From positions 846,922-910,921 of the forward strand of contig JAZKCY010000001.1 of NCBI GenBank assembly GCA_040387855.1: a stretch of 64,000 nt of DNA, written 5' to 3'. This stretch comes from Patescibacteria group bacterium. Lineage in GTDB: Bacteria > Patescibacteriota > Minisyncoccia > Phycocordibacterales > JAKAEA01. The translations under genes and the position numbers were made by a program. Each line of letters opens with the position of its first letter. Position 1 is the stretch's first letter. The notes below the pieces were generated by a model, which was not told where the DNA came from, searched no databases, and was given only the letters and a program-made list of their open reading frames with translations. Shown piece by piece: positions 7,320 through 38,214 of this stretch.

Positions 7320-8138
7320 ATGAAGTTCTTCCCATCGCATAAAAAATCCGGTTTTACGCTTATTGAGTTATTAGTGGTAGTTGCCATTATTGGTGTACTT
7401 TCGTCTATTGTACTCGTAAGCCTTAATACAGCACGAGTAAAGGCAAAAAATGCAGCGGCACTTGTTATTGTTCACCAAATACAAATCGCTATGGCACTTT
7501 ACTATGATGATTATGGCGAATATCCAGACAATGGCGATGGGTTTTATTGTATTGGTAGCGATCGCTGCTATATCAATGGACAAATCTATACTCAGGTTCT
7601 TACGTTAGATACTCTCAATAAAATCCCCCCAATACTTACATCTGAAACCAACTCATTCTGGTTTTCACCTGCTACAGCACATGCTGCAGGCGAATTCTCA
7701 AAATTCGTAGTGCCTATTGATAACGAGCAGAATGCCGGGGTAATTTACTATGAAGGTAGTAGTGATGAATCATATGTATTATTTCCAGAAGTTGAAGGAA
7801 ACACTACAACATGGTTCGCTCAAAATCCTGGCAATACTAGTACTACAGTATATACAACATCTTCTAACGAAAATGGAAGTGGAAGCGGTAGTGTATCAGA
7901 ATCTCCAAGCGAATCTGAATCACCTAGTGAATCTGAAAGTCCAAGTGATTCTGGCTCAACTAATAATAATTTATATTATTTCTGCGAATATCAAGGAGGA
8001 GCTACAGGTGATGGATATGGTTGGAGTGATGGAAATGATTGTACATACTATTACTGTTCTTACCAAGGGTATCCAAGTAACGGATACGGTTGGAGTAATG
8101 GATCAAATTGTGGTAATGGTTCAGGATCAGGTTCATAA
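7320..8138 (+). CDS. Type IV pilin-like protein (class III signal peptide) with a Ser/Glu-rich repeat and Cys-rich C-terminal region
   Basis: Prepilin motif KKSG|FTLIELLVVVAIIGVLSSIV, with G at -1, F at +1 and E at +5. The C-terminus has SESPSESESPSESESPSDSGS repeats and YxxC Cys-rich segments. Confidence 0.75.
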   Translation: MKFFPSHKKSGFTLIELLVVVAIIGVLSSIVLVSLNTARVKAKNAAALVIVHQIQIAMALYYDDYGEYPDNGDGFYCIGSDRCYINGQIYTQVLTLDTLNKIPPILTSETNSFWFSPATAHAAGEFSKFVVPIDNEQNAGVIYYEGSSDESYVLFPEVEGNTTTWFAQNPGNTSTTVYTTSSNENGSGSGSVSESPSESESPSESESPSDSGSTNNNLYYFCEYQGGATGDGYGWSDGNDCTYYYCSYQGYPSNGYGWSNGSNCGNGSGSGS

Positions 8139-21622: not shown

Positions 21623-21737
21623 CTTCGTACCGGCGGCTAGCTACTTTCCCCCCAGAAGGGTATCATCGCCTCAACGGGGCTTAACTGCTGTGTTCGGAAT
21701 GAGAACAGGTGTGGCCCCCGCGACAAACCACCAGAAC
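21623..21737 (-). rRNA. rrf: 5S rRNA
   Basis: The reverse complement reads tctggtggtttgtcgcggggg...ccgaacacagcagttaagccccgttgaggcgatgatacccttctggggggaaagtagctagccgccggtacgaag, which has the canonical 5S helices and the CCGAAC...GTTAAGC core. Confidence 0.85.
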
Positions 21738-22149
21738 GAAACATTCAATGTACTACTTTCAAATTTAATCAATTGAAAGCTCTAAAGTGGGCGCGGCTAC
21801 CAGGAAGTGGGGGACCTGAACAACAAGCCGGCCACTTTATTACTGGAAGACCACGCTTCGCTCCGAAGAGCTAAAGAACATGATCCACTTTGGAACTTTC
21901 AATTACAAGAGCTTTTACAAACAACAATACTTACTGTTCATGGAACCCCTCGATTTCACTCGGGGTAAAAATTCCATGTAACAGGATAAAATCAAGATTT
22001 TGCAATTTAAATTGCGGTGCTTCATACATTTCCTAATAAGGATCGATTAATTAGTACATCTCGGCTCAACACATTACTGTGCGTACACCTAATGCCTATA
22101 TACGTAATCATCTCTTACGAATCTCAAACGATTTCTAATCTTGGAGTAT

Positions 22150-22180
<31 letters not shown>

Positions 22181-22336
22181 ATTTCCCGACATAGCTACTC
22201 TGCGATGCCCTTGGCAGGACAGCAGATAGACCAGAGGTCAGTTCAACTCGGTCCTCTCGTACTAGAGTCAAATCTCCTCAAAAATCAACGCCTGCAGCAG
22301 ATAGGAGACCAACCTGTCTCACGCATATTTGTCACA

Positions 22337-22662
22337 CATCACTGTGTGTATTGGACTATAGCTTCATCCCCTTTTTAAAGAAGGACTACTGACGATTAGT
22401 CTCTACGGGCTCTAGATTTCTCTAAATTCCCTCGGTATAGCCTTGATCATCAATCAAGATTCCACCGAAATTAGTCAGTTTGATTCATAAATATTTCTAT
22501 TCATGACCGCCGTGATTAGTATACTTCTGTATACTGGTTAGTTTCATATCTTGCGAATAGGTTACTCACCTATTCGACTTTGTTAAACGAAAAAACACTT
22601 TAATGTTTTCTTCCTCTGTTGGGGTTCAGACGGTTCAAGAGACAACTCACGTTATCTACTGA
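22337..22662 (-). other. Intervening sequence 1 in 23S rRNA (about 326 nt, ORF-less), a putative group I intron at E. coli position about 2585-2593
   Basis: The exon sequence ...GGTTCAGACCGT | CGTGAGACAGGTTGGTCTCCTATCTG... matches E. coli GGTTTAGAACGTCGTGAGACAGTTCGGTCCCTATCTG. It is interrupted by 326 nt that are absent from canonical 23S. The upstream exon ends in T and the insert ends in G. Confidence 0.6.
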
Positions 22663-23325
22663 ACGGTCTGAACCCAGCTCGCGTATCTTTTTAAATGGCG
22701 AACAGCCATACCCTTGGAAGCTTCTCCACCTCCAGGATAAGATGAGCCGACATCGAGGTGCCGAACACTACCGTCGCTCTGGACGCTTAGGTAGTACCAG
22801 CCTGTTATCCCTAGAGTAGCTTTTATCCGATAATCTCCGGCCGCATCTAATGCGAACCGTCGGTTCACTTTGTCCCGCTTTCGCGCCTGTTCGACAAGTA
22901 CGTCTTACAGTCAAGCAAGCTTATGCCAATACACTATCGCCACGGTTTCCATTCGCGGCTAGCTTACCTTAATGAACTCCTCCGTTACTTTTTAGGAGGA
23001 TAGCGCCCCACTAAAACTGCCCACCAGATACTGTCTCTCATCGTTTTTGCCGTTGAGGTTAGAGTGTACATCTATAAAGAATGGTATTTCACTGACGACT
23101 CCACCATCCCCGAGAGGATAGCTTCAAAGTCTCCCATCTATGCTACGCAGTAACAACGTACACGCAATATCAAGTTGCAGTAAAGCTTCTAGGGTCTTTT
23201 CGTCTAGCTGCAGGTAACCGGCATCTTCACCGGTATTGTATTTTCACCGGGCGAGTCCCCGAGACAGTTGCTCAGTCATTACACCATTCGTGCGCGTCAG
23301 AACTTACCTGACAAGGAATTTCGCT

Positions 23326-23573
<248 letters not shown>

Positions 23574-24995
23574 CAGGGCTTATATCAGTCAGCAATTAAA
23601 TCTTGCGATCCAATCACCGCCAATATTTGACCTTCTGGCATTGGTCAGGTGTCACCCCCTATACATCCTCTTTCGAGTTCGCAGGGAGCTGTGTTTTTGG
23701 TAAACAGTTGCCAAGCATACTTTAGCTGCGGCCTACTTGCGTAGGCAAGCCTTATCCCGAAGTTACGGCTGCTTTTTTGCCGAGTTCCTTGGGGACCTCT
23801 CACCCGTTCGTCTTGGTCTACTCGACCTGATCACCTGTGTCGGTTTGCGGTACGGTTTTCATAGTGATAATTTTAGGGGTTTTTCTTGGGAGCGTGCTTT
23901 CAAGACTTAGCTTGGGTTGCCCCTTGCATCGTCGCTTCATTTCCAGTCGCCATTGAAGGCAGAGTTCCGGATTTACCTAGAACTCCCAGTTAAGACACGA
24001 ACATCAATCCAATAAGATGATCTTGATACTACACCCCGTCCTCCCATCAAACACTATAAAAGTCATGGAATATTAACCATGTGTCCATCGGATGCGGCGT
24101 TTGCCATCTCCTTAGGCCCGACTAACCCTTCGCTGATTGTCATCGCGAAGGAAACCTTGATCTTTCGACGTGTATGGTTTTCACATACATTGTGGTTACT
24201 TGTGCCAACATTCTTACTTCGCAACGCTCCAGTATGGGTCACCCCTTTACCTTCATCGCTGATGCGAATACTCTCCTACCAGTATAACTATTCGAAAATA
24301 ATTATAATCCTCAGTTTCGGTACTACGCTTAGCCCCGATTATCTTCGGTGCGGAAACTCTCGATGAGTGAGCTGTTACGCTTTCTTTAAAGGATGGCTGC
24401 TTCTAAGCCAACCTCCTCATTGTCTGAGAGTTTCCACTTCCTTGAGTGCACTTAGCGTAAATTTAGGGACCTTAAATAGAGATCCGGGCTGTTTCCCTTT
24501 TGACCAATGGAGCTTAGCCCCCACAGTCTAACTGCCATGTTCTTGATCTTTGGTATTCGGAGTTTGATAGGTCTCGCGAGATTTCTCCCTGTCGAGACCT
24601 TCCAGTGCTCTACCCCCAAAGGGAACACATGACGCTAGCCCAAAAGCTATTTCGGAGAGAACCAGCTATTACCAGGCTCGGTTAGCTTTTCACTTCTTAC
24701 CACAAGTCATCCCAAGATGTTGAACGGTCTACGGGTTCGGGCCTCCATTGTTCTTTCGAACAACTTCACCCTGCTCATGGCAAGCTCGCTCTGGTTTCGG
24801 GTCTGATGCATACTACTTATTCGCGCTATTCACACTCGGTTTCCCTAGGACTCCAAGCTCTCGCTCTTAGTCATGCAGCATGCATCAACTCGTTGGCTCA
24901 TTCTTCAATAGGCACGCCGTGACGGATGCTTGCGCACCCGCTCCGACTCCTTGTAGGCATATGGTTTCAGGTCTATTTCACTGTCCTCACCGGAC

Positions 24996-25037
<42 letters not shown>

Positions 25038-25839
25038 TCTGAAAATATTTAGCCTTACCGGTTAGTTCCGGCAGATTCCTCCGAGCCATTCGTGTCTCGA
25101 AGTACTCAAGAATGACAACAAAAAAGATAATTCATTTTAACGTACGGGGCCATTACCCTCTAGGGCGCTGCTTTCCAACAGCTTGCGCTAATGAATCATT
25201 TTGTAACTTTTCTTGCTTAAAAAGCAACGTTATCACCTTACAACCCCCAGTCGTCAACTTAGAAGAGAATTGCTTCCCCACTAAGTTGAAGACTGAGTTT
25301 GGGCTTCTACGCTTTCGCTCGCCGCTACTTACGTAATACTTATTAGTTTCTTTTCCTCTAGGTACTGAAATGTTTTACTTCCCTAGGTATGCTCTAAATG
25401 CGTCAAGCGCATTAGTCTCAACTTATAGTTGAGGGGTTTCCCCATTCGGAAATCTTCGGATCGACTGTTGCCAGGCACATCCCCGAAGCTTATCGCAGCC
25501 ATGCCACGTCCTTCATCGCTTTTCAGAGCCAAGGCATCCACCATATGCCCTTACATTCCCTATTAGGAAATGTAAGAACCACAATCTTGTTTTATCCTGT
25601 TACATGTAATCTTTCGATTTCAGTAACAAGTTTTAATGTATTGTTTACCTGTTTAATCACTATTGCCCTACAAGACAATAGTGAAGTTTTTGTTCTGATG
25701 ATGTTCTTATCAAACATCACCAGAGCTCTTGCCTGTCCTCACCACCCGAAAAGACCCATATGCACTCCTGCACGTAAGTTCTTTAGTGATGGAACAGAAT
25801 TAAATTTTCAAATGACTTATTCGGACTTATATTCTTAAC

Positions 25840-25864
25840 AAAAAATCCGCTTTCGCGCGGATCG
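25840..25864 (-). terminator. Rho-independent terminator (minus strand) in the spacer between the GC-rich island and the 23S rRNA leader
   Basis: The minus strand reads cgatccgcgcgaaagcggat followed by TTTTTT. Confidence 0.45.
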
Positions 25865-26036
25865 TAGATACACTCTATTGCTAGGGCTTATCTATATCCG
25901 ATTAAGATTTCTTGTTAACAACATAATTTCAGTAGTGATGCCTATTATACACACCGAGAAAATAGAGTCAAGAGATTATTTAAAACAAATGAAACACCTA
26001 TATAAATCAAGCTAAGATTAGTATTTAAAGACGAAT

Positions 26037-26062
26037 GAAGCCGCACTGTTTGGTGCGGCTTC
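26037..26062. terminator. Perfect 10-bp hairpin at the left edge of the GC-rich island (possible terminator or boundary element)
   Basis: gaagccgcac tgtttg gtgcggcttc. On the plus strand it is followed by a T-rich tract. Confidence 0.3.
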
Positions 26063-26152
26063 GTGCTCATTTTATTATTCGGTAGTAGCACACCGGGCGA
26101 ATTTCTTCGCGAAAGATCAAATGTGACTCAGTTCAGGACCTCAGACGTCAGG

Positions 26153-27001
26153 TCAGCCCTTCGCCGACGGCCCAGCATGTCCGTCTTCGGGGGCGACCAC
26201 ACGGGTCGGGTCCGGGGACTCCCAGGCGTAGCTGTCGATGGGTTTCCCGTCGGTACCCGTGGGAACCCAGTCGGCCGGAGCGCGGAGGCCGTAGAGGCTG
26301 CTACCCAAGGCCTCGAGGTCGATCGGCTCATCACTTTCGTGCGTGACGTCGAGCAGCAACCCCTGACCGTCACCGACAGCGTCGGGATAGGGATCGTGGG
26401 TAATGCTCACGACCCTCAGGCTGGTCACTCGCATCCCGGTAACCGCGGAGTTGTCCGGGACCGGAATGGATACCCCAGCGAACCGCTGATCATCCTCGTC
26501 GCGCTTCGAGAAGGCCATGACGATGAGAAACCGCATGAGCGATCCTCCCGTCAAAATCTCCTCTTGGTACAGCGCATACGCCACGGCCATCAGGATGCCG
26601 ATGATGCTCGGCAGTAGCGACACCAATGCTTCCCCGAGGACGATTGCGTAGATCCCGCTGACGAGTGCAAACGCCGAGCCAAGAAGCGCAAACCACCAGC
26701 AGATGAAGACTCCGACCTCGTCGTCCGACGTGCCGTTCTCGATCTCCGTAGCCACCGCCTTGATGATCTTCATCCAGACGATGATCACGAGGAACAGGAA
26801 CAGCGAATCGAACCACCGCGAGAGGTTGATCACCGTCCCGGCCGAAACCAGGGAGAGATCAAACGACATGCGGTAGGCCTCGATCGGCACCTCCGACTGG
26901 TTGGCCCAGTACACCAGGCTCACGCTAAGCGCGAACAGCGCCCAGACAGAAGCCGGAAGCGACCAGAGGAACGACACGGTAGAAAAAAAGATTCGAGACA
27001 T
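26153..27001 (-). CDS. Island ORF 1: polytopic membrane protein with a C-terminal acidic soluble domain (282 aa), function unknown
   Basis: High-GC ORF. About 5 TM helices in the first roughly 170 aa, then a D/E/P-rich soluble tail. RBS is tcAAGGAcggtttacaATG. The overlapping ORFs in other frames look like R/G/P-rich high-GC artefacts. Confidence 0.55.
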   Translation of the reverse strand: MSRIFFSTVSFLWSLPASVWALFALSVSLVYWANQSEVPIEAYRMSFDLSLVSAGTVINLSRWFDSLFLFLVIIVWMKIIKAVATEIENGTSDDEVGVFICWWFALLGSAFALVSGIYAIVLGEALVSLLPSIIGILMAVAYALYQEEILTGGSLMRFLIVMAFSKRDEDDQRFAGVSIPVPDNSAVTGMRVTSLRVVSITHDPYPDAVGDGQGLLLDVTHESDEPIDLEALGSSLYGLRAPADWVPTGTDGKPIDSYAWESPDPTRVVAPEDGHAGPSAKG

Positions 27002-27065
27002 TGTAAACCGTCCTTGATTGAGAACTAATGGATACTAAACCGAACGATTCGGCCTATATCCACGC

Positions 27066-27102
27066 TGTGTATATATTACCATATTTTATACATAAAGTCA
27101 AA
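27066..27102 (-). promoter_or_regulatory. Near-consensus sigma70 promoter for island ORF 1 (TTGACT-17-TGgTAATAT)
   Basis: Minus strand: tTTGACTttatgtataaaatatggTAATATatac. -35 lies at revcomp 27096-27101 and -10 at revcomp 27073-27078. Confidence 0.5.
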
Positions 27103-27103
27103 T

Positions 27104-27136
27104 AAAAAAGACCCCACACAACTATGTCGTGCGGGG
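27104..27136 (-). terminator. Rho-independent terminator of island ORF 2
   Basis: Minus strand: ccccgcacgacatagttgtgtgggg followed by TCTTTTTT. One G.T wobble in an 8-bp stem. Confidence 0.5.
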
Positions 27137-27216
27137 CCCTTGCATTTCGAGAACGGTGGAAAATGCTCACCGATAAAGATCAAATCTCATGACGCTACGC
27201 TACTATGCCCTGTCAA

Positions 27217-27759
27217 TCAGGCCGGCCGCATGATCACGTGCATCGCGCGGCGCTTGAGGGCCTTCAAGAAAATCTTGGGCTTCATGACCGCAGCCCGGAG
27301 GCGCGGCATCTTGCAGTCCACGTAGTGGATGACCAAGCAGCAGACGCCGAGAATGATCAGTCCAATCCCCCCGAAGAACGCCATGCTCACGCCTTGGCCG
27401 GCGAGCGTCCCGAACCCCATGAAGAGGAAGGAGACCATGCCGATCCACACGTATACCTGGTCGTAGCTGAACGACTTGCCCCAGAGCATGCGGCGCCCGT
27501 AGGTGTCGTGGCCGGCGGCGTCCTTCTCCTTGCGGAGGGTCATGCCGTAGCAGAACGACCAGTGGCCGATGAACGCCATCAACCCGAGGGTAATGAGGTC
27601 CACGAACCGGGGGCCGTTGACCGCCTCCATGAAGAAGCGGCTCGGCCGGGCGTTGTTCCAGAGCCACGGCGTGCCGAAGGTCAGGATCACGAGCCCCCAG
27701 ATGCTGGCGATCGCGAGCGTGACCAGGAGAGCGAACACGTAGGACTTGATGCGGAACAT
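27217..27759 (-). CDS. Island ORF 2: four-TM membrane protein with a basic C-terminal tail (~181 aa), function unknown
   Basis: The ORF track gives 27217..27840, but the likely start is the internal ATG (revcomp 27757-27759), which is preceded by tcAAGGAcggttcccATG. The sequence is MFRIKSYVFALLVTLAIASIWGLVIL.... Confidence 0.55.
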   Translation of the reverse strand: MFRIKSYVFALLVTLAIASIWGLVILTFGTPWLWNNARPSRFFMEAVNGPRFVDLITLGLMAFIGHWSFCYGMTLRKEKDAAGHDTYGRRMLWGKSFSYDQVYVWIGMVSFLFMGFGTLAGQGVSMAFFGGIGLIILGVCCLVIHYVDCKMPRLRAAVMKPKIFLKALKRRAMHVIMRPA

Positions 27760-27829
27760 GGGAACCGTCCTTGAAATGAGAGCTGACGTGCATACGACCG
27801 GACTGTCCGGCAATAACACATCCTGGGTA

Positions 27830-27858
27830 TATGATATCATATTTATACAAATTTGTCA
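27830..27858 (-). promoter_or_regulatory. Near-consensus sigma70 promoter for island ORF 2 (TTGACA-17-TGaTATCAT), divergent partner of the ORF 3 promoter
   Basis: Minus strand: TTGACAaatttgtataaatatgaTATCAT. -35 lies at revcomp 27853-27858. Confidence 0.5.
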
Positions 27859-27867
27859 AATATATTA

Positions 27868-27895
27868 TTTGACTTTATTTATTTATATGATATAA
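27868..27895 (+). promoter_or_regulatory. Near-consensus sigma70 promoter for island ORF 3 (TTGACT-16-TGaTATAAT)
   Basis: TTGACTttatttatttatatgaTATAAT. -35 is at 27868-27873 and -10 at 27890-27895, with an extended TG. Confidence 0.55.
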
Positions 27896-27994
27896 TACAT
27901 ACTAAGGAAAAGCGTTCGGTTACTCTCGGTCTCCGGGAGCGACGCTAATCCAAGACTCCTGTTACCTGCGAATTTCGCAGGAGGAGAAGGTATC

Positions 27995-28471
27995 GTGATT
28001 GGAATGATCCAGAGCACGCTTCGTCAGTTCGCCCTCACCAGCAACGATCCCAGCCTCGACCTCACCCAGAGGCGGCAGGGGTGGCAGCCCAGCTGGATGT
28101 GGGTGCGGATGGGTGACCTTGTGCAGGCGGTGAACAGCGCCCACCCCGAGCTCTCTCCCTTCGACCAGAAGATCTGGACCGGCAAGGAGCTCGGAAACAC
28201 GTTTGCCGAGATCAACCGGATCCAGACCTTCTGGTTTGTCATGGAGGGCTACAAGGAGCCCCAGTACGAGAACATCGTCCGCGGCATCCCGCCCAGGAAC
28301 ATCCCGTTCGACCAGCTGGAGCTCTTCGTCCCCGCAGTCTGGGCCGAGCAGGTCTTCGCGATCACCCGCAAGGGCATCACGGCGATCCTGTGGATGAGCA
28401 ACAAGCCCTACGGTCAACGCGGAACGAACATCGTCGCCATCGACGAGATTCTCAAGGCCGCCGCGGCCTAA
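27995..28471 (+). CDS. Island ORF 3: hypothetical cytoplasmic protein (158 aa)
   Basis: GTG start 9 nt downstream of GGAGG. The SD is partly sequestered in the perfect hairpin cctgcgaa-t-ttcgcagg (27965-27981). No recognisable domain. Confidence 0.55.
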   Translation: MIGMIQSTLRQFALTSNDPSLDLTQRRQGWQPSWMWVRMGDLVQAVNSAHPELSPFDQKIWTGKELGNTFAEINRIQTFWFVMEGYKEPQYENIVRGIPPRNIPFDQLELFVPAVWAEQVFAITRKGITAILWMSNKPYGQRGTNIVAIDEILKAAAA

Positions 28472-28510
28472 AATAATGTACCCCGACAATTCACCGGGAA
28501 TGTGAATTAA

Positions 28511-28562
28511 GAACCCCGAGCCCCGGAGCCTGCGAAAGCACGCCCCGGGGTTCACTATTTTA
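28511..28562 (+). terminator. Rho-independent terminator of island ORF 3
   Basis: gaaccccg...ccggggttc forms an 8-bp GC-rich stem with an internal loop, followed by ACTATTTTAT. Confidence 0.5.
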
Positions 28563-28576
28563 TACAAACCCATAGT

Positions 28577-28604
28577 TTGACTTTCTGTATTTTTATGATA
28601 TAAT
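28577..28604 (+). promoter_or_regulatory. Near-consensus sigma70 promoter for island ORF 4 (TTGACT-16-TGaTATAAT)
   Basis: TTGACTttctgtatttttatgaTATAAT, the same architecture as the ORF 3 promoter. The 5' UTR contains the 12-bp perfect palindrome CCACACGTGTGG (28641-28652). Confidence 0.55.
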
Positions 28605-28691
28605 TAGCACAGACATACAAAGGGTTCGAGTAGTGGTGATCCACACGTGTGGTCCCTATTTTAATCCAATGTATACCTGGGAGATCCTGAT

Positions 28692-29156
28692 ATGTTGAAC
28701 ACTTTAATGAGCCGTGCGGCAGCGTACATCAACACGATGCCCGAAGGCTCCAGCACGCGCAACCGTGCGTCGGCAGCGTTCGCACTGGCACAAGCGATCG
28801 CACTCTCCATGGCTCAACGCGAGCCGCGGGAGTCGAAGTTCGTGATGTTCACGAACCAGCAGCTCCAGCGCGCGTTCGATGTCCTCCGGCACTACAACGT
28901 GGAGACAGTCACCGACCACGAGTGCCTGGAGCCGGCGATCAAGATGTTGGCCTGGGCATTCATCCAGACCGCCAACGGCTTCGGTGAGAACATCGAGCGC
29001 GACATCAAGCTCGTGTTCATCGAAGGTGATCACTACAACGTCATCCACGAGGACACGCTCCACCGCGCGTTGACCTGCATCCGTGAAGGAGCAAAGTCGA
29101 TCGTAGCCGGAATCCCGGAGCTGGCCGGTGTGATGCACCCCGAATCCACAGTCTGA
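28692..29156 (+). CDS. Island ORF 4: hypothetical cytoplasmic protein (154 aa)
   Basis: ATG preceded by GGGAG at -8. High-GC codon usage. No recognisable domain. Confidence 0.55.
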   Translation: MLNTLMSRAAAYINTMPEGSSTRNRASAAFALAQAIALSMAQREPRESKFVMFTNQQLQRAFDVLRHYNVETVTDHECLEPAIKMLAWAFIQTANGFGENIERDIKLVFIEGDHYNVIHEDTLHRALTCIREGAKSIVAGIPELAGVMHPESTV

Positions 29157-29200
29157 AAGTACATGCCCATCTTCGCAGGCATATAGAAAAGCGAACAACC

Positions 29201-29250
29201 GAGCCCCGACACCAGAGACTTACATCTGGTGCCGGGGCTCTTACGTTTTA
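29201..29250 (+). terminator. Rho-independent terminator of island ORF 4
   Basis: gagccccgacaccag agacttacat ctggtgccggggctc forms a 15-bp stem with one mismatch, followed by TTACGTTTTAG. Confidence 0.55.
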
Positions 29251-29261
29251 GTAATCTACAA

Positions 29262-29307
29262 AATTTTATATAAAAAATGGTCAGGTCTCCCGGAGGAAAC
29301 CTGACCA
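29262..29307 (-). terminator. Rho-independent terminator of island ORF 5
   Basis: Minus strand: tggtcaggt ttcctccgggag acctgacca (perfect 9-bp stem) followed by TTTTTTATATAAAATTTT. It starts 5 nt after the stop codon. Confidence 0.6.
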
Positions 29308-29311
29308 TGTC

Positions 29312-29683
29312 TCACATGGCCTTCGGCCAGTTGGGACAACTCAACTTGTACATTCTCTTCTCCACTGCATCAATGTGATGCCAGTAGCACTTGAGGCATA
29401 CTGGACATTGCTTGATGATACAGCCAGAATCGGCTGTCCTATCCCCGCTTCGAGGAGGACAACACGTGGAGTAGCCTACTACATCTTCAAATCGTCCGAG
29501 ACTGTCTGTCAGCACGAAGCTACATCCCCGCTTAGCGCAGCGGTACTCACCGTGCGCAATCCGAGGACTCCACTGCACGCCCCACGAATCGTCGGTTGGC
29601 TTTGGAGCAGCACCCGAGCTCGTCATCTCAATCACCACCGGTACTAGCACTTGAAGTACCGCGGTTCCCACAATCTTTTCCAT
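29312..29683 (-). CDS. Island ORF 5: small Cys-rich protein (~124 aa; 10 Cys, zinc-ribbon/knottin-like pattern) with a hydrophobic N-terminus
   Basis: The ORF track gives 29312..29737, but the likely start is the ATG at revcomp 29681-29683 (MEKIVGTAVLQVLVPVVIE...). The AGGA of the SD sits in the loop of a perfect 8-bp hairpin, catacgaaAGGAttcgtatg. Cys clusters are CAKRGC, CCPP, CIIKQCPVCLKC and SCPNW. Confidence 0.5.
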   Translation of the reverse strand: MEKIVGTAVLQVLVPVVIEMTSSGAAPKPTDDSWGVQWSPRIAHGEYRCAKRGCSFVLTDSLGRFEDVVGYSTCCPPRSGDRTADSGCIIKQCPVCLKCYWHHIDAVEKRMYKLSCPNWPKAM

Positions 29684-29762
29684 ACGAATCCTTTCGTATG
29701 AATGCCTGAGGTTTAAGAACAGAAGTCCCGCCGACACATGCCGGCGGGATTGCCCGTTGGAT

Positions 29763-29790
29763 ATAATAGAATAAATACTAGTTTTGTCAA
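29763..29790 (-). promoter_or_regulatory. Near-consensus sigma70 promoter for island ORF 5 (TTGACA-16-TATTAT)
   Basis: Minus strand: TTGACAaaactagtatttattcTATTAT. It is followed in the 5' UTR by the GC hairpin cccgccg...cggcggg (29722-29743). Confidence 0.5.
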
Positions 29791-29808
29791 CGGATATCTC
29801 GTCGGGAT

Positions 29809-30438
29809 TTATCGGGCAGCAACGTTAATCTTATCCAGAATAATTTCGTGTTCATAATCAAGAATATCCCGAACAAGCTTATCGTAGACGCCTAATCGAT
29901 ACTGAAAATCTGCAGTTTCAAAAGAGGCATAACGAATTTCTTTTCCAAGCTCAGATTCTAGAGTTCGAACTACATTTTCAAGTGTTCCCTTTCGTAAATT
30001 ATCTCCAACAACGAGGAGATCAACACGCGAATCCCAATTTTGTATAAAAAATCCAGAAATAATAACAAGCTTAAGTTTACCAACACGAGCAAGCTTTCGT
30101 AATAACTCCTGGTTGCGCTGTTCACTAACATGCACCAAAAGATTCTTTAGTGGGTCTAAATATTCAAATGTGTAATCAAGCGTCCAGCCCATTACTCGAT
30201 GGCGTTCTATTTTTTTATTTTTTCCTCGGCCAACTTCTACATCTCTAAAAAAGCTTTTCTTTTTAAGCATGCCCATTTTTTCAAGCAATGAGAGTTCTTG
30301 TCGTGCCGCTGTTGGAGTTACTTTTGATCGTTCAATAACATGATCTATGTCATAGCTTTCTTCATTGTTAAACAAGAAAAGTCGCATGATTTTTACCTTT
30401 GCTGCTGAACCAAATAGTTTTTCGAGAATGTCGAGCAT
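29809..30438 (-). CDS. Putative winged-helix + minimal nucleotidyltransferase-domain protein (209 aa)
   Basis: N-terminal wHTH-like region. The central ...ISGFFIQNWDSRVDLLVVGD... resembles the GS-x(n)-DxD pol-beta-type NTase motif. Low-GC host-like composition. Confidence 0.4.
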   Translation of the reverse strand: MLDILEKLFGSAAKVKIMRLFLFNNEESYDIDHVIERSKVTPTAARQELSLLEKMGMLKKKSFFRDVEVGRGKNKKIERHRVMGWTLDYTFEYLDPLKNLLVHVSEQRNQELLRKLARVGKLKLVIISGFFIQNWDSRVDLLVVGDNLRKGTLENVVRTLESELGKEIRYASFETADFQYRLGVYDKLVRDILDYEHEIILDKINVAAR

Positions 30439-30527
30439 GTATGAAATCGGTTATGATTACTGGCTAGTATAGCATTCTCTTGGGTTCTGGAAAATTGACG
30501 ATATTTCTATGTATTGCCTGATATATA

Positions 30528-30563
30528 TAACAAAAGCTCCCACATCATAATGTGAGAGCTTTT
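30528..30563 (-). terminator. Rho-independent terminator after rplL
   Basis: Minus strand: aaaagctctcacattatgatgtgggagctttt followed by GTTATAT. Confidence 0.5.
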
Positions 30564-30582
30564 GTGTTAGAAAATCTAGAAA

Positions 30583-30990
30583 TTATTTCAATTCTACCTT
30601 TCCTCCAGCTGCTTCGATGTCTTTCTTCATCTTTTCAGCATCTTCCTTCTTTACTCCTTCCTTAAGGTTAGCAGGTGCTGATTCTACAAGAGTCTTTGCT
30701 TCTGCAAGACCGAGTGAAAGTGCTTCCTTAACTACCTTGATAACTGCAACCTTTGCTGCTCCGAAATCTTTAAGGTGAACGGTAAATGCTGACTTTTCTT
30801 CTGCAGGCGCTGCTGCTGCACCTCCCGCTGGAGCTGCTGCTACTGCTGCTGCTGAAACTCCGAATCGCTTTTCTAATACTTTAACAAGGTCATTGAGTTC
30901 GAGAACTGACATTTTCTCAATCTTCTCAACCATATCCTTGAACTGAGCTGGCACTTCTGCCGGAGCTGCATTCTGTACTTCTTCTGACAT
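30583..30990 (-). CDS. rplL: 50S ribosomal protein L7/L12
   Basis: The Ala-rich flexible hinge ([16 protein letters not shown]) and the C-terminal domain ...[38 protein letters not shown]... are typical of bL12. Confidence 0.9.
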
Positions 30991-31015
30991 AATGTTGAAA
31001 TTTAATTAGTAATTA

Positions 31016-31507
31016 TTATGCTGACTTTCCTTGTGCAATCTGATCCAATGCGATAACTACACGCTGGATTGGAGAATTGATAAGGTTAACGAACATTCCA
31101 TAGAGAGTTTCTCGAGGAGGAATAGCTGCAAGAGCAGTCATTTCATCCTTGGTCATGTACTTCCCTTCGAATACTCCTCCGAGGATAGAAAGTTTGCCAT
31201 CAAACTTTTTCTCGAATGTATACACTTCTCGTGCAGGTGCGAGGAGATCGTCTCCATATGCAAGTGCAAGCTCTCCATCAAGTTCAGGCATTTCACCTGT
31301 TACTCCCTTTTCTGTGAAAGCTTTCTTTGCGAGAGTCTTCTTAGCAACAGTATATTTTACTCCTGCTTTTCGAAGCTGCTGACGCATAGCTGTTGAATCA
31401 CCTACGGTCAAACCATGAAAGTTTACAAACACGACACTTTTAGCATCGTTTGCAACTTCTGATACTTTCTCTAATACTTCCTTCTTTTTGCTTTTTGGTA
31501 ATGGCAT
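31016..31507 (-). CDS. rplJ: 50S ribosomal protein L10
   Basis: Conserved uL10 block ...MRQQLRKAGVKYTVAKKTLAKKAF..., in the canonical rplJ-rplL order. Confidence 0.9.
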   Translation of the reverse strand: MPLPKSKKKEVLEKVSEVANDAKSVVFVNFHGLTVGDSTAMRQQLRKAGVKYTVAKKTLAKKAFTEKGVTGEMPELDGELALAYGDDLLAPAREVYTFEKKFDGKLSILGGVFEGKYMTKDEMTALAAIPPRETLYGMFVNLINSPIQRVVIALDQIAQGKSA

Positions 31508-31654
31508 GAGGTTTTAAAAACCTAAAAAATAAAATCGACCATCGGGCCGAATAGAGTGAATATATACATCGCTGTATATATTCGTACCTCGAGAGGTCTT
31601 GTGTAGGATTTCTCCCTACTGCCTCTTGTCTTTAGCCGATGTCGATATAATACA

Positions 31655-34621
31655 CTATTTTAGAAAGTTGTAAAGTAGTCTTTCTAGCTTAATAAACTGT
31701 CCCTTATTTGGATGTTGTACAAGCTTTTCTAAGACTTTTTTAAGCTGTGTTGATTGTCCTGACTGAAGCTGAATATCCACAATACCATCGTTATCAAAGT
31801 CTATTGGTAACTTTTTATCTTGCACTAAATTTCCAAGCTGAACATTGCTTACCATATCAGGAACAACTGGAATATCTTTATGTTCATGATGAGAAACAAC
31901 TGCATTATTAATTACATGATCAACAATTATTGTTGCAGTACCAAAATCTGTGCCTTTAAAAGTAAGTTCTAGATTAGGATTATAAGGAATACTCACATAC
32001 TTCCCTTCTCCATATTCCTGGTATGCGCCTTGTGGAATATTTTCATCTATAAACTTAACAGAAGAATTAGATACAGATGATGTTGAAATACCTAGATGAT
32101 TTCCCAAAGTATCATACACATCTATGCTTACGGGCGAATGAATACTAATTCGAATCTGATTTTGATCAGTCTCAAGCGTTGAAGTTGAAAAGTAACGAGA
32201 GATTATCTTTTTATCAGTAATTATATTATTTATAAGATCTTGAACTGGAGAAGCTTCAAGTATATTTGCATGCGATGTATGCGTGGCACCAGAATTATGA
32301 TACAGCGGGAAGTTGAAATAATAGGTCGGCTGATCGAGCATTGCTGCAGCACTTAGAGCAATAACGGTACCGTCTCCATCTCGAGAGTATGTAGGATTAT
32401 GAATTAAATAATCTTTGTCTCCACAAATAATATTGCATGCCTGAGTACGCTCAATGGAATATTTAACTCCCGCTAACGTATCAAGACCAGTACCAACAAC
32501 TTGATGAACAGTAATTCCCTGTGGTGGGAGCCATTCATCTTGTCTTTCGTGAGTTACTTCTGAACGAATAAGCAATGTCGGATTAGCAATATTTGGAGTT
32601 AAAAAATCATTTACTCCAGGGTCTTTCCGATCTTTTCGAAATGCTAGCAAAAATTCTCTAAATGTTGATGCATCATTAATTTCTGTTCCATATACAGACA
32701 AACTTGTACCCGAAGCTATTTGAACAACTGGAATAGTACTACGTTCTAAATATACTTTTGAGGGCAAAAGATTATAAGCGCTTGGCATATTTTCAGCTAA
32801 CAGGCGTGAACCTTTTTTGCTCATAATGAATCCTTGTAGATATACCTGCTCATCACTATGGAGTAGCGATGCTAAAGCTTTAGGTGTACCAAGTTGAGGA
32901 ACAGCAACAAATATTACATCGTCAAGCAAATATTCAAGATTTTCTTTCCTGATCTCATCAATTAGTGCTTTGGATAGTAATCCCCCATTGCTGTGTGCGA
33001 CTATAGTCACTTTTTTAGATTTAGATGATTCTGCTAAAGATTTAAATAGAGCTATAAGATTATAGCTGGCTCCATTTTCTAATTTTATATCTTTGGAAAT
33101 AATGTCGGTATAGTCTAATCGCCAATCGTATGGAGCTGCTTTCCATTGATTAATGAGCTTTTTATCCACCAGGTCATCCATAGCTTTCATAAAACTTTTG
33201 TATATTGTAGGACGATGAAATGGAATTATATTTATTTCATCCACAATATCTTTGGTATAAATATTTTCGTAGATACTTTTTCCATCTTCATTTAGCAATA
33301 AATCAAATATATCAGTATCGATGTTTGGTTCCCACAACTGATCTCCGTTTGTCAAAACTCTTGGTTTGTAGAGTCTACTAGCTTGAAGTCCCGGTAAAAA
33401 CAAAACATTAGAGCAACATATATCTTTTTTTTCTGGATCTTCCAATAACCATGGAGTAAACAGCACATTCGCAGGTTCAGGGTTTGGGCCTGTTGAATCT
33501 CCCCACCAATTATTTCGAGCATCAAATGCATGCTCAGTGGTACTTAAAATACTATCTTCATGATTATCTTTTATTGAACTATGTGAAATAGAGCCACCAA
33601 CTACACCATGTAGTTCTATTCCCCTTTTATTATTTTGAAAGATACTTGAAGTAACAGTGATATGAGCACCGTTGAAGCTCATTAAGCCACTCTCTTGAGC
33701 ATCTTGAATGGTACTTGAAGCTATAATCATATTTGTTTGACTATATGCTAGAACTGCATTTTGGAGGCTTCCAGTTATCGTTGAATTTAAAAGTGTAGCC
33801 TTAGTAAGATTAAAATTACTGCTATTAAATGCAGCAAGTGCAGAACCCATTCCATGATATGAAATCGTGGAATCAGAAATCTTTACGATGCTATTATTAA
33901 ACACATTAATTCCATCTTTAAGACTATCTTCTTCCCCAACATCAACTATACAGGCAATACAATTTAATTCACTTGAATTATAGAGAGTAATTCCTCCGTC
34001 TGAATGCTGAATTGTCGTCGAGGCAATGTCTACACTGCTGTGATTGAAAGCTGTTAAGCCATACGTAGGAATATTCTCTATACTCGAATTTATTAGATGC
34101 ACACGTGAGTTATCAGCTTGAATACCCTTTCTACTATCACTCATAAGCATGTTTTGTATTGTCAGCTGGGTATCTTTTGCTGAAATGCCGTTGTTTATAT
34201 ATCGAACTACTATATTTTTAAGGATTGACGGTTGTGATGAACGAAAAAAAATACCACCTATATCATCTTGTGATGGCAGTGAATTATTAAGATCTTCATT
34301 TGTATCACCACCAATATCATTATTAAACGAAGTGACGATAATCTTGTCATTTTCATTTCCTAGTAAATAAAGGCTTCCTTCCATATCTAAACTACCATTA
34401 TCAAATTTTATGATAACTCCAGGTTGTACAGTAATAATCACATCTTTTGGAACATAGACATCTCCTTGGATAACATACGGGCTATTATCCTTAGTCCATT
34501 CCATACTCTGCGTAACTCGTGAGTCTATATATGTGGTTGCTGATACTGATACAGGTGCAATTAAAATACATGAACCAGTAAGAATAAAAAATAAAGAAAT
34601 TTTAGAAATGAAATATCGCAT
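31655..34621 (-). CDS. Secreted protein with parallel beta-helix repeats and an alpha/beta-hydrolase (GxSxG lipase-like) domain (988 aa)
   Basis: N-terminal signal peptide. There are repeated N/S/T-rich segments of about 22 residues typical of right-handed beta-helix proteins. The central VTIVAHSNGGLL motif is a nucleophile elbow (AHSNGG). Confidence 0.55.
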   Translation of the reverse strand: MRYFISKISLFFILTGSCILIAPVSVSATTYIDSRVTQSMEWTKDNSPYVIQGDVYVPKDVIITVQPGVIIKFDNGSLDMEGSLYLLGNENDKIIVTSFNNDIGGDTNEDLNNSLPSQDDIGGIFFRSSQPSILKNIVVRYINNGISAKDTQLTIQNMLMSDSRKGIQADNSRVHLINSSIENIPTYGLTAFNHSSVDIASTTIQHSDGGITLYNSSELNCIACIVDVGEEDSLKDGINVFNNSIVKISDSTISYHGMGSALAAFNSSNFNLTKATLLNSTITGSLQNAVLAYSQTNMIIASSTIQDAQESGLMSFNGAHITVTSSIFQNNKRGIELHGVVGGSISHSSIKDNHEDSILSTTEHAFDARNNWWGDSTGPNPEPANVLFTPWLLEDPEKKDICCSNVLFLPGLQASRLYKPRVLTNGDQLWEPNIDTDIFDLLLNEDGKSIYENIYTKDIVDEINIIPFHRPTIYKSFMKAMDDLVDKKLINQWKAAPYDWRLDYTDIISKDIKLENGASYNLIALFKSLAESSKSKKVTIVAHSNGGLLSKALIDEIRKENLEYLLDDVIFVAVPQLGTPKALASLLHSDEQVYLQGFIMSKKGSRLLAENMPSAYNLLPSKVYLERSTIPVVQIASGTSLSVYGTEINDASTFREFLLAFRKDRKDPGVNDFLTPNIANPTLLIRSEVTHERQDEWLPPQGITVHQVVGTGLDTLAGVKYSIERTQACNIICGDKDYLIHNPTYSRDGDGTVIALSAAAMLDQPTYYFNFPLYHNSGATHTSHANILEASPVQDLINNIITDKKIISRYFSTSTLETDQNQIRISIHSPVSIDVYDTLGNHLGISTSSVSNSSVKFIDENIPQGAYQEYGEGKYVSIPYNPNLELTFKGTDFGTATIIVDHVINNAVVSHHEHKDIPVVPDMVSNVQLGNLVQDKKLPIDFDNDGIVDIQLQSGQSTQLKKVLEKLVQHPNKGQFIKLERLLYNFLK

Positions 34622-34777
34622 GGGTATATAACACCATGCGATAGATCAAATTTTCTTAAAGATACTATGAATTACTTATTTACCATCAAGAGGATAAGAA
34701 AGCTTACACATAATACAGTAAGAAATCCCGTGAGGAATTTAAAAAAATCTTTATCGAACATGAAATTATAATAACAC

Positions 34778-34806
34778 AAAACCCCGCCTTTCGGCGGGGT
34801 TTTGTT
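34778..34806. terminator. Bidirectional rho-independent terminator
   Basis: aaaaccccgcc ttcg gcggggtttt followed by GTT. It lies 35 nt downstream of the minus-strand gene's stop codon. Confidence 0.55.
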
Positions 34807-34840
34807 AACTAATCCAGATCCTTTAGCTTGCGCTAAGAGA

Positions 34841-36676
34841 TTATTTTACGAATGTAACTGGATTTGTCTTGAAGTCGTTCAATCCCCATGTCTGTGTAAC
34901 GGTTACTCCGTTTACAACAGCCTGAGCCTGAGTCAACTGAACCACTTCACTTGTAAGTGATCCGTTTCCAAGACCTGTAAGATCTGCAGTACTTACGTTG
35001 AATACAACTGTAACTGTGTATTCTGATCCTTCAGCAAGTACTGATGGGTTTCCAGAAACTGTTACACTGTCAGCTGATCCTAGACTTACTGCACTTGATG
35101 ATGAAGCAACAGTTGCTGTAAAGTCTGAAGCGACAGGAAGTGTCATAGAACCTCCAACTGGCTTAGCCTTTAGGTTGAATGTTGCTGTGATACCTGTTGA
35201 TGATGCAGTATTTCCTCCAGATAGCACTGCTGCTGTTGCTGAAGATGATGACCATCCTGGTGTTGCTGAGTAGAAGTACTGATTGTTTCCAGCAATTGTT
35301 GCTGAAGCTGTAGCAGTTGAACCATTTGGTTTATCGTAGCTTACAGAGTTAACTGTTGTACTTGCGATTGTTCCGTTGGTTGTTCCTGTTGGGAAATCAG
35401 CCTTAACTGTGAACACCTTTGTTGCGTCCTTTGCTACATTAACTGAAGAGTTACTGAAGCTAAAGGTTGTTGTTGTTGCATTTGTTCGTGAGTCAACAAG
35501 TGTTGATCCATCGTACAAGTACAATGTTGCTGCTGTAGTTGCTGATGATGAACTTGTTAGAGTTACACCAGTTACCTTAGCATCTCCGTCAACTGCTCGA
35601 ACTCCGAAAGTTGCAAGGGTTACTCCTTGTGCTCCTGAAGTTGAAGTTACTCGGTGTGTCTGTGAGAAAGGATTACTTGCATCGGCCTGTAGGGTCAATG
35701 TAGCTGCTCCTGGCTTCTTGAATGTGTGTGTTCGTGTAACTGTGTCGATATTGTAGTATGATACTACGTTATTTCCACTTGATACTCGGAGTGAGTTTGA
35801 TCCGTAACCTGAAACTACAACTGTTCGGTCGTTGTCAATTCCAGCGTTTGTGTTCACTGAGAATACAAGGTTCTTCATACCATCCTTTGGAACTGTAAGA
35901 CCAATGTCAGACAATCGAATGTAGTATACATTTGATGAGTCCTTGATAAAGTCAGATGAACCAACTGTCCATGACTTGAGAAGGGTTGATCCGTCCCATG
36001 CCTTGATAGTGTTCACGAAGTTTCCTGGGTTTTCGTAAGAAGTTGTTGTTGTGTTGTAAACAGATACTTCAAGGTCTGCTCGGTCGATCTTAACTGCTCC
36101 TAGCTTTGCTCGGAGGTCAAGTCCGTATACCTGAACATCAGTACTTGACTGAATGTTTGCATTGTTTGAAGGTGTTGCTGCCTGATTCACTTCAAGAGTT
36201 CCTTCTGTTCCAGGAGTTGATGTTGTTCCTCCTGTTGAGCAGAGTGCTCCTGTCATTGAATTGTAGATAGCTCCTGTTGCGCATCCAGGTGTAGGTGTTG
36301 TTGTTCCTCCAGTTGATCCTGTTCCCATTGTAGCAATGTATGCTCGTGTAATAGGTCCAAAGTATCCTGCTGCTGGTGAAATGTTAACACTTGCCTGCCA
36401 TGCTGCCAAAGCTGCCTTTGTAAGAGATCCGAAGTAACCTGTTGGGGCTACTGAAAGATATCCCTTAGTTGAAAGGATTGTTTGTAATTCTGTAACATCA
36501 GCTCCTCGTGAACCTACTGTAAGGTTTCGTGCGAATGATGTTGTTGTCTGAGCGTTAGCTGAGACAGTAGTAAGACCTACTACAAGGGTGAGTACCATTG
36601 CTACGCTCAAGAGCGCTGCAACAATCTTCTGTGATGATTTGATAGACATAATAAATAAGTTATATATAACTGTCAC
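34841..36676 (-). CDS. Secreted/cell-surface protein with a putative peptidoglycan-binding domain and a Thr/Ser-rich beta-rich C-terminal region (611 aa)
   Basis: GTG start 6 nt after GGGAG. There is a signal or anchor segment. The PG_binding_1-like region is LTVGSRGADVTELQTILSTKGYL...GYFGSLTKAALAAWQAS. A long T/S/G/A/V-rich region follows. Confidence 0.55.
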   Translation of the reverse strand: MTVIYNLFIMSIKSSQKIVAALLSVAMVLTLVVGLTTVSANAQTTTSFARNLTVGSRGADVTELQTILSTKGYLSVAPTGYFGSLTKAALAAWQASVNISPAAGYFGPITRAYIATMGTGSTGGTTTPTPGCATGAIYNSMTGALCSTGGTTSTPGTEGTLEVNQAATPSNNANIQSSTDVQVYGLDLRAKLGAVKIDRADLEVSVYNTTTTSYENPGNFVNTIKAWDGSTLLKSWTVGSSDFIKDSSNVYYIRLSDIGLTVPKDGMKNLVFSVNTNAGIDNDRTVVVSGYGSNSLRVSSGNNVVSYYNIDTVTRTHTFKKPGAATLTLQADASNPFSQTHRVTSTSGAQGVTLATFGVRAVDGDAKVTGVTLTSSSSATTAATLYLYDGSTLVDSRTNATTTTFSFSNSSVNVAKDATKVFTVKADFPTGTTNGTIASTTVNSVSYDKPNGSTATASATIAGNNQYFYSATPGWSSSSATAAVLSGGNTASSTGITATFNLKAKPVGGSMTLPVASDFTATVASSSSAVSLGSADSVTVSGNPSVLAEGSEYTVTVVFNVSTADLTGLGNGSLTSEVVQLTQAQAVVNGVTVTQTWGLNDFKTNPVTFVK

Positions 36677-37238
36677 ATTTTTCTCCCTCTTTATTATTAA
36701 TATATATAGAATGAGAGAAAAACATGTTTTTGACTTTTTGTGTTCTTTCTTTAAAGAACATCGACTTTCTTTTAAAGATCGAACGTTTTACTACAACAAC
36801 TGAAGCCTAACAATTGTCGCAGCATCTACACTATTTTTTTGTCTTTTGTTTGATCGACTCAAGACAAAAAAGTAGGTTTTGTGAGTAAGTCTGAATTTCT
36901 ATCGTTAGCAACAGTAGAGGGAAAAGTAATTCGGAAGTGCACACTCTCTATTCAATTTTCAATGTTCTTATTCGTTCAAACCCGATCGATTTCAGTATGC
37001 ATCGTAGTATAGCATAAACAGCTTCATGCTCAACAACGATGTGAGGACCTGGTTTGTGGATAACTAGCCTAATTTCGAATTTTATATCGATAATCCTGGC
37101 AGCATCCAGTTGGCGTATAATTACATACTGATCAACTAAAGTCAATAAATATATAGCTATAATTCCCAGTCCTACATTTACTACGACGAACGAAGAGATT
37201 AGTAACTTACGCTAAGAATTTTTACTTGATTACTTACA

Positions 37239-38108: not shown

Positions 38109-38214
38109 TGTCCATTATATATGGGACAGTGTCTTTGTCAAAAAATCCTTGGTTAGAGCGCTTATTTTTTATGACTTATATGATATTTTTCCCATGTCTA
38201 TGCTAAAATAGACA
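38109..38214. promoter_or_regulatory. Two 20-bp TGTC-N12-GACA palindromes in the regulator/ftsK divergent intergenic region (candidate operators)
   Basis: TGTCCATTATATATGGGACA is at 38109-38128 and TGTCTATGCTAAAATAGACA at 38195-38214. The second overlaps an extended -10-like TGcTAAAAT. Confidence 0.35.

Follow-up and report, generated by a model that had tools for sequence, protein, structure and literature searches.

A GC-rich insertion of five orphan-gene expression cassettes beside the 23S rRNA promoter of an AT-rich Paceibacteria genome

The window analysed here, 64,000 nucleotides of a Patescibacteria group bacterium (NCBI GenBank assembly GCA_040387855.1, contig JAZKCY010000001.1, positions 846,922 to 910,921 of the forward strand), holds an island of GC-rich genes, A to E, between the promoter of its 23S rRNA gene and a winged helix-turn-helix (wHTH) gene. 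The model favoured here, with roughly even confidence, proposes that the island is made up of five moron-like cassettes drawn from a pool that is laterally exchanged among Paceibacteria, that this pool is probably of GC-rich origin, and that the cassettes were inserted by recombination and likely encode envelope or exported products. The island is a lineage-specific insertion into a normally empty spacer of an AT-rich Paceibacteria genome (981,549-bp contig), and in this model its five unrelated monocistronic expression cassettes would be stacked side by side rather than constituting one co-functioning system.

The island is set apart by its composition. In 400-nt windows, GC content moves from 0.35-0.41 at 25.6-26.2 kb to 0.50-0.63 across 26.0-29.8 kb and then to 0.34-0.38 past 29.8 kb, and mean GC is 0.557 for the island (25,979-29,808) vs. 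0.375 for the remainder of the window, a sharp step that agrees with the jump from an AT-rich background reported in the original prediction, a note made from the sequence alone. The same note described the spacers within the island as AT-rich, and these have a measured GC of 0.36-0.46. At the three codon positions (GC1/2/3), values are 0.59/0.45/0.80 for gene A, 0.51/0.43/0.89 for gene B, 0.56/0.41/0.89 for gene C and 0.57/0.41/0.81 for gene D, while gene E reaches a GC3 of only 0.57. The GC3 comparison that had been proposed as a check thus gives 0.57-0.89 for the island genes, and 0.80-0.89 for A-D, against 0.26±0.04 (maximum 0.34) for 43 surrounding host open reading frames (ORFs). The order GC3 > GC1 > GC2 in A-D indicates real coding sequence under a GC-rich codon regime, and A and T are both scarce at third positions (0.06 and 0.09). 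The island ORFs are true coding sequence, in the reading frames that the original prediction had picked.

The nearest relatives lack the insertion, and the assembly that contains it is sound. An independent assembly, Logan contig SRR26324620_279460 (17.6 kb), was retrieved over 11,569 bases that are 100% identical to window positions 25433-37001, both junctions included, so the island is not an assembly artefact. Searching with the wHTH protein retrieved relatives that are Parcubacteria/Paceibacteria metagenome-assembled genomes (MAGs), whose loci are designated here by L numbers, and at least 12 of them keep the wHTH-23S synteny with gaps of 0.3-2.1 kb of native composition; the spacer measures 314 bp in L002 and 823 bp in L008, and in other relatives it extends over 1-2.1 kb of native composition with a conserved membrane protein of ~230 amino acids (aa). 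In L030, the closest relative found (wHTH 73% aa identity), 18 nt separate the wHTH stop codon from the -35 box of the 23S promoter, and in L030 and L002 together this promoter lies within about 18-60 nt of the wHTH stop. The empty site that had been suggested as a further check is therefore present in both, and by this comparison the window holds a 3.83-kb insertion between the wHTH stop and the 23S promoter. Its limits fall at about 25,979 and 29,808 rather than at the 26030 and 29805 first given, and the promoter of E sits, relative to the wHTH stop, where L030 has its 23S promoter. In its central point, a lineage-specific insertion of foreign composition, the original prediction is borne out by the GC and GC3 contrast together with the empty site. 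The features of the island and its flanks are as follows, by window position.

25944-25971, minus strand: 23S rRNA promoter, TTGACT-16-TATAAT; native flank on the rRNA side, kept in relatives L002, L008 and L030
25979-29808, no strand: the inserted island, with limits set by the empty-site relatives and in agreement with the GC step
26014-26027 and 29772-29785, no strand: weak 14-nt terminal inverted repeat (12/14), reached by 4/300 shuffles
26037-26062, minus strand: intrinsic terminator hairpin of cassette A, found by terminator scan
26153-27001, minus strand: gene A (V4519_04785, a hypothetical protein in the NCBI record), 282 aa, GC3 0.80
27073-27101, minus strand: promoter of A, TTGACT-17-TAATAT, with TG
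27107-27141, minus strand: terminator of B, 16-bp stem then T-run, -24.7 kcal/mol
27217-27759, minus strand: gene B (V4519_04790), 180 aa, GC3 0.89-0.94
27831-27859, minus strand: promoter of B, back-to-back with the promoter of C
27869-27896, plus strand: promoter of C, TTGACT-16-TATAAT, with TG; 80% identical to the D promoter over 40 nt
27995-28471, plus strand: gene C (V4519_04795), 158 aa from GTG or 155 aa from ATG at 28004, GC3 0.89
28518-28553, plus strand: terminator of C, -25.2 kcal/mol
28577-28604, plus strand: promoter of D, from the promoter scan
28692-29156, plus strand: gene D (V4519_04800), 154 aa, GC3 0.81
29201-29240, plus strand: terminator of D, -29.6 kcal/mol
29277-29308, minus strand: terminator of E, from the terminator scan
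29312-29683, minus strand: gene E, 123 aa, 9 Cys, GC3 0.57; absent from the NCBI annotation
29726-29749, minus strand: stem-loop in the 5' leader of the E mRNA, past the E promoter and ahead of the start codon
29763-29790, minus strand: promoter of E, with its -35 box 18 nt past the wHTH stop, the spacing of the 23S promoter in L030
29809-30438, minus strand: wHTH gene (V4519_04805), native GC3 0.27; flank on the rplJL side and synteny anchor

Each unit consists of a consensus sigma-70 promoter, a leader of 60-100 nt with a 5' stem-loop, a Shine-Dalgarno (SD) sequence, one GC-rich ORF and an intrinsic terminator, and the units are oriented -,-,+,+,- along the island. All five ORFs are preceded, 100-126 nt before the start codon, by a TTGAC[AT]-16/17-TAnnAT promoter, mostly with a TG-extended -10 box (the scan returned 11 promoter-like sites vs. 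5.1±1.8 in shuffles), and each is followed by a hairpin terminator, four of which scored -23 to -30 kcal/mol while that of A was located by a separate scan. Gene E, with its own promoter, SD and terminator, was called by the Logan gene caller. The promoters of A, C and D have sequence in common beyond what the consensus demands, and the pre-start motif TCAAGGACGGTT is common to A and B. That each gene is an independent transcription unit, as originally proposed, is supported by these five promoters and five terminators. Among the predicted products, the sizes first given for A (282 aa), C (158 aa) and D (154 aa) hold, whereas B has 180 aa in place of ~181 and E has 123 aa with 9 Cys in place of ~124 aa with 10. 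The two hairpins that had been taken to mark the boundaries are the terminator of A (26037-26062) and, at about 29726-29749, the leader stem-loop of E, neither of them att-like; and the evidence favours five unrelated cassettes that are individually exchangeable over one self-contained module or system. Consensus TTGACW-16/17-TATAAT promoters occur at only 4 sites in the window, vs. 0.12 expected; one belongs to the 23S gene, two belong to island cassettes and one lies at 38114-38141. The Logan gene caller placed genes B and C in antisense frames (products of 189 and 203 aa), which indicates that GC-rich cassettes in AT-rich genomes are prone to mis-annotation and to being missed in protein databases.

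The extreme contrast in composition, and the antisense frames called for two ORFs in the Logan contig, might suggest an artefact: a chimeric assembly involving a high-GC organism, an engineered insert, or a set of non-coding GC-rich RNA genes, the first two of which the original prediction had also entertained. This explanation is largely refuted and very improbable. The two assemblies are identical at both junctions (100% over 11.6 kb), and the alternation of AT-rich promoter and GC-rich ORF is repeated five times, a pattern that a chimera cannot yield. No marker or known protein points to engineering, and cassettes of the same kind and architecture are found in environmental MAGs of other, unrelated projects. 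With regard to RNA genes, the strong three-base periodicity with GC3 > GC1 > GC2 is a coding signature, and Rfam is negative even at E<=1, with no gathering-threshold match in the island and isrK (E=0.65) as the sole match at that level.

In sequence searches, the five proteins were without detectable homologues, in line with the original remark that none could be tied to a known family. Remote-homology searches covered A, C and D; B and E were covered by family libraries, tblastn, IMG/VR and 90% clustering (E also by PDB). Among 5.8 billion proteins, A and C matched only themselves (C by word-index search), and an exhaustive HMMER search of 1.84 billion representatives with D returned the protein itself and two spurious matches. 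One of these two sub-threshold matches is a retrotransposon-integrase fragment in tandem repeats and the other a surface protein rich in repeats; both were rejected because repeats inflate their scores. Pfam, PHROGs, NCBIfam and PADLOC gave only noise for the five proteins (E of at least 0.03), the PADLOC-DB defence models gave no match to A-E below E=0.05, and all five are singletons when clustered at 90% identity. In the PDB, nothing significant matched the sequences of A, C, D and E or the profiles of the two cassette families X and Y described below. Nor was there a match for A-E by tblastn in 50,697 phage and 72,556 plasmid records, or for A-E, X or Y in scans of the 2.9 million viral contigs of IMG/VR. 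The phage, plasmid or defence origin first suggested is not supported, the PHROGs, PADLOC, tblastn and IMG/VR results being negative for all five proteins.

A more specific form of that suggestion proposes that an unsampled GC-rich phage or plasmid of Paceibacteria integrated beside the rRNA operon and that the units are its remnants or true morons. Phage morons are defined by their own promoter and terminator and by a GC content unlike that of their neighbours (PMC3594210), a definition that the island units fit; in addition, orphan content is typical of phages, and a weak 12/14 terminal inverted repeat lies at the island ends, although no further copies of its motif were found and its significance is uncertain. 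Against this proposal, the island holds no integrase, structural, replication or PHROG-matching gene, and no integrase, transposase, reverse transcriptase or phage gene occurs in it or within ±15 kb, where the genes are housekeeping ones (glycosyltransferases, FtsW, FtsK, RecA, EF-P, SSB, S6, TatD). The immediate neighbours are 23S rRNA, wHTH, rplL and rplJ. The att-like sites or direct repeats that were to be sought at the edges did not appear: no direct repeat was found at the island ends, the best candidate being 9/14 and matched in 299/300 shuffles. There is no tRNA gene in the 64-kb window, and no relative among the viral contigs or phage records searched. A mobile-element remnant is consequently regarded as improbable. 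The marks of a classical genomic island are likewise missing, with no integrase in the island or within ±15 kb, no tRNA in the window and no direct repeats at the ends, and no further GC-rich patch was found in the 4 kb beyond the window start.

By analogy, the phage moron is nonetheless the closest described architecture, minus its defining phage context. Like morons of the HK97/HK022 type, the island units are single genes with a sigma-70 promoter, a factor-independent terminator and deviant GC, inserted between conserved genes and absent from close relatives. However, morons sit in phages or prophages, whereas the island units are chromosomal, between an rRNA promoter and a housekeeping gene with no phage gene nearby, and, unlike morons, five of them are stacked in mixed orientation and are GC-richer than the host. 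SAR11 HVR2 is a hypervariable island next to rRNA genes in a streamlined bacterium, and it resembles the present locus as a variable accessory slot beside rRNA, with conserved flanks, in a small genome and with a content that changes from relative to relative and is enriched in envelope-related or unknown genes; it differs in that the unit of variation here is the single transcription unit, with a breakpoint at the promoter and a radical shift in GC. Integron cassettes are also small, mostly orphan, individually exchangeable single-gene units at one locus, but the island units have their own promoters, mixed orientation, no IntI and no attC-like shared 3' repeat. Diversity-generating retroelements, frequent in the Candidate Phyla Radiation (CPR), similarly produce localised hypervariation of accessory, often surface, proteins; here, in contrast, the whole transcript varies rather than a C-terminal ~100 nt, and an adenine-specific signature is lacking. 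Signs of such an element were not found, in that no repeat of >=35 nt involves the island, no pair of template and variable repeats was seen, and no reverse transcriptase lies within ±15 kb. A literature search on GC-rich islands in Patescibacteria turned up nothing relevant.

While the empty site was being sought, short GC-rich patches, each with one ORF, were seen in several lower-GC relatives. Strong terminators follow all of these ORFs, and consensus promoters, of the form TTGAC[AT]-17-TATTAT, precede many. Family X occupies the fusA|tuf spacer in L011, L016, L024 and L053, and L049 has an X-like gene; family Y is found between a conserved membrane protein and rpsS in L011, L014, L018, L024 and L053; and additional singleton cassettes occur in L018 and L019. 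Cassette GC3 is 0.77-0.91 for X, Y and the L018 singleton and 0.70-0.74 for the two L019 cassettes, in hosts with a GC3 of 0.34-0.63. No Pfam domain was found in the relatives' cassettes, and no resemblance to A-E. Their positions within the respective loci are as follows.

L024: 2115-2885, 11466-12172
L016: 2120-2700
L011: 3157-3804, 11499-12152
L053: 3475-4143, 11574-12098
L018: 8454-8900, 11682-12221
L049: 2026-2535
L019: 12241-14423

These observations allow a cassette class to be proposed, comprising monocistronic units with a consensus promoter, a strong terminator and a GC3 at least 0.35 above that of the host, situated in a spacer of the rRNA or ribosomal-protein neighbourhood. The class takes in A-D and, in part, E, and also X, Y and others in L011, L016, L018, L024, L049 and L053.

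Judged by codon usage, the island, the orphan cassettes of the relatives and the core genes of GC-rich Paceibacteria employ one codon dialect. Relative synonymous codon usage (RSCU) in A-D correlates at r=0.93 with the X and Y cassettes, at r=0.83 with the core genes of the GC-rich Paceibacterota L022 and at r=-0.76 with the host, and CTC is preferred to CTG by 2-3:1 in all codon-usage sets, those of the AT-rich hosts included. Most high-GC bacteria favour CTG. The core genes of GC-rich Paceibacterota (L022, MAG SMAG_U6015) also resemble the island in their GC3 of 0.71-0.84 alongside GC-poorer spacers and in promoter style, although no homologue of A-E was found in these genomes, which are candidate donors by composition only. 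In a further explanation, the genes came from a high-GC organism outside the CPR, for example the physical host of this presumed episymbiont or that host's phage, and gained host-type promoters later. A life on other cells and the uptake of DNA are commonly ascribed to CPR bacteria, and a GC3 of 0.80-0.89 is typical of genomes of 62-70% GC, both of which would suit such a source. However, the CTC>CTG preference agrees with Paceibacteria, GC1 (0.51-0.59) is low for a source of ~70% GC, each of the five perfect CPR-type promoters and terminators would need to be a gain made after the transfer, and the same architecture recurs in other Paceibacteria. Further, the searches of 5.8 billion proteins (A, C) and 1.84 billion representatives (D) gave no homologue, and no phage, plasmid or IMG/VR match was obtained. 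A high-GC donor outside the CPR is thus unlikely, since promoters, SD sequences and codon dialect all match the same bacterial radiation.

Comparisons between close genomes suggest how such cassettes vary. X and Y are syntenic, yet from genome to genome they share only 22-44% identity where the flanking proteins share 60-97%; between L024 and L053, for example, the wHTH protein is 92% and the membrane protein 97% identical at the aa level, while the Y protein is 38% identical. At the nucleotide level, the Y locus of L024 (11384-12260) compared with that of L053 (11384-12260) is 92% identical in the promoter, 51% in the leader, 52% in the coding sequence, 45% in the terminator and 93% in the rpsS promoter. 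The X locus of L016 (2060-2760) compared with that of L024 (2050-2940) shows 87-89% identity in the flanks, 80% in the promoter, 36% in the leader, 55% in the N-terminal part of the coding sequence and 77% in the terminator, with a 200-nt indel between the two cassettes, and identity between L024 and L053 breaks at the X promoter too. In close pairs, then, identity falls from 80-93% to 36-55% a few bases past the -10 box and is regained at the terminator or the next promoter, which indicates that the variable unit is the transcribed unit. In these alignments, the flanks are nearly identical while the related cassettes between them are altogether different, and the break comes just past the promoter. 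This variation is established for the X/Y pairs L016/L024 and L024/L053, the best relative of the window itself, L030, having the empty site. A gene of 114-118 aa beside X (L024 2931-3287, L016 2757-3101), with a GC3 of 0.55-0.66 and 65% identity between L016 and L024, is absent from the close relative L053 and so represents a further cassette that varies by presence or absence.

The position of the breakpoint leads to another explanation, by which the cassettes are long-resident and their transcribed bodies evolve very fast, through transcription-anchored hypermutation or RNA-templated replacement, while a GC-biased process or selection on mRNA or codons keeps their GC content. All three close-pair comparisons lose homology within a few nt of the -10 box or transcription start site, a boundary that leaves a transcription-anchored process formally open, and even the non-coding leaders are only 36-51% identical where the flanks are 80-93% identical. 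In addition, X and Y hold one spacer in several genomes at a GC3 of 0.77-0.85 across host GC3 of 0.34-0.63, and one codon dialect runs through all cassettes. However, a crossover within the conserved promoter accounts equally well for the boundary, no repeat of the template/variable type and no reverse transcriptase is found in the window, and third-position A and T are both depleted, unlike the outcome of the adenine-specific mutagenesis of diversity-generating retroelements. Moreover, Y proteins are 38% identical between L053 and L018 and again between L053 and L024, and 26% identical between L024 and L018, while the host wHTH proteins are 63% (L053-L018) and 92% (L053-L024) identical; distances that are neither clock-like nor congruent with the host tree favour replacement of whole transcription units over steady divergence in situ. 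Rapid evolution in place is for these reasons considered doubtful. The same doubtful standing is given to its broader form, that AT-rich Paceibacteria keep a compartment of promoter-anchored hypervariable cassettes, with a GC3 of ~0.8-0.9 whatever the host, and that a transcript-linked process is the cause; transcript-templated replacement, hypermutation, strong biased gene conversion and selection for GC-rich mRNA are the candidate processes, and the island of this window would then be the largest array of such cassettes so far.

Taken together, the data are most readily accommodated by the exchange model set out at the beginning. In this model, a pool of cassettes would be exchanged laterally within the radiation, with GC-rich Paceibacteria as the most likely source, and cassettes would move as pieces the size of a transcription unit by RecA-dependent or illegitimate recombination (a recA gene lies 11 kb from the island). 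Recombination would be anchored on conserved promoters, terminators and rRNA or ribosomal-protein flanks, and the target spacer would be one that is variable across the clade. Several observations weigh against this model or limit it. No donor has been found, nor any A-E homologue in the GC-rich Paceibacteria loci that were fetched, and the remote-homology negatives cover A, C and D. The island flanks show neither imported donor sequence nor direct repeats, so the mechanism of integration is unproven. The hypervariable cassettes seen in AT-rich genomes are all GC-rich, a one-way flow that simple two-way exchange does not predict, and Y exceeds the core in GC content even in L014 and L018, which are GC-richer hosts. 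Gene E deviates in composition (GC3 0.57) and may have a separate history. Finally, the proposed function is drawn from predicted topology.

By that topology, protein A has 4-5 predicted transmembrane helices and an acidic C-terminal domain of ~115 aa, and protein B has ~4 predicted transmembrane helices and a basic C-terminal tail. Protein C is soluble and Trp-rich, and protein D is soluble and mostly helical by prediction; single-sequence AlphaFold2 models of these two reached a confidence score (pLDDT) of 35 (C) and 46 (D), below what a fold search needs. Protein E has an N-terminal hydrophobic segment, and its 9 Cys are arranged as C-x4-C ... CC ... C-x5-C-x2-C-x2-C ... C; it is probably exported or metal-binding. 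With two polytopic membrane proteins, two small soluble ones and a Cys-rich one anchored by its hydrophobic N-terminus, each expressed from a strong promoter, the products most likely act at the cell envelope, where the candidate roles, under diversifying selection, are host attachment or interaction, or conflict between strains or with phages.

Other features of the window lie outside the island. Rfam places the 23S rRNA at 22033-25564 (minus strand), with a group I intron at 22332-22549, and 5S rRNA at 21628-21735. The 23S gene measures 3,532 nt against a 2,925-nt model, and once the intron of ~218 nt is subtracted, another ~400 nt of insertion remain to be accounted for, and the window shows no linkage of the 16S gene to the 23S gene. 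Tandem 18-nt repeats at 9253-9538, 9768-9844 and 7849-7972 encode units of the Ser-Pro-Ser-Asp/Glu-Ser-Gly type in two neighbouring genes (ORFs 8460-9878 and 7320-8138), probably a repetitive surface protein and a candidate hypervariable locus. The wHTH protein (29809-30438, minus strand) matches the PADLOC candidate-defence model PDC-M05A over its C-terminal half (E=1.6e-13); its retention beside rplJ-rplL across Paceibacteria suggests a housekeeping role rather than one in defence.

In bacteria, DNA that is foreign or accessory usually has a higher AT content than the core genome or host. The island reverses this direction to an extreme, with a GC3 of 0.85 in a genome with a GC3 of 0.26, and the same direction is seen again across a clade of CPR bacteria that are ultra-small and uncultivated. 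Moreover, the cassettes adjoin the most conserved and most highly expressed loci, those for rRNA, ribosomal proteins, tuf and fusA. Whichever explanation applies, the contrast in composition provides a cheap computational handle on fast-evolving accessory genes in CPR genomes. If the GC-richness of the cassettes is actively maintained, it would point to an undescribed mechanism of diversification or expression control. If the cassettes instead belong to an exchangeable accessory pool, they would mark where and how these reduced genomes innovate, likely at the cell surface that mediates their presumed symbiosis.

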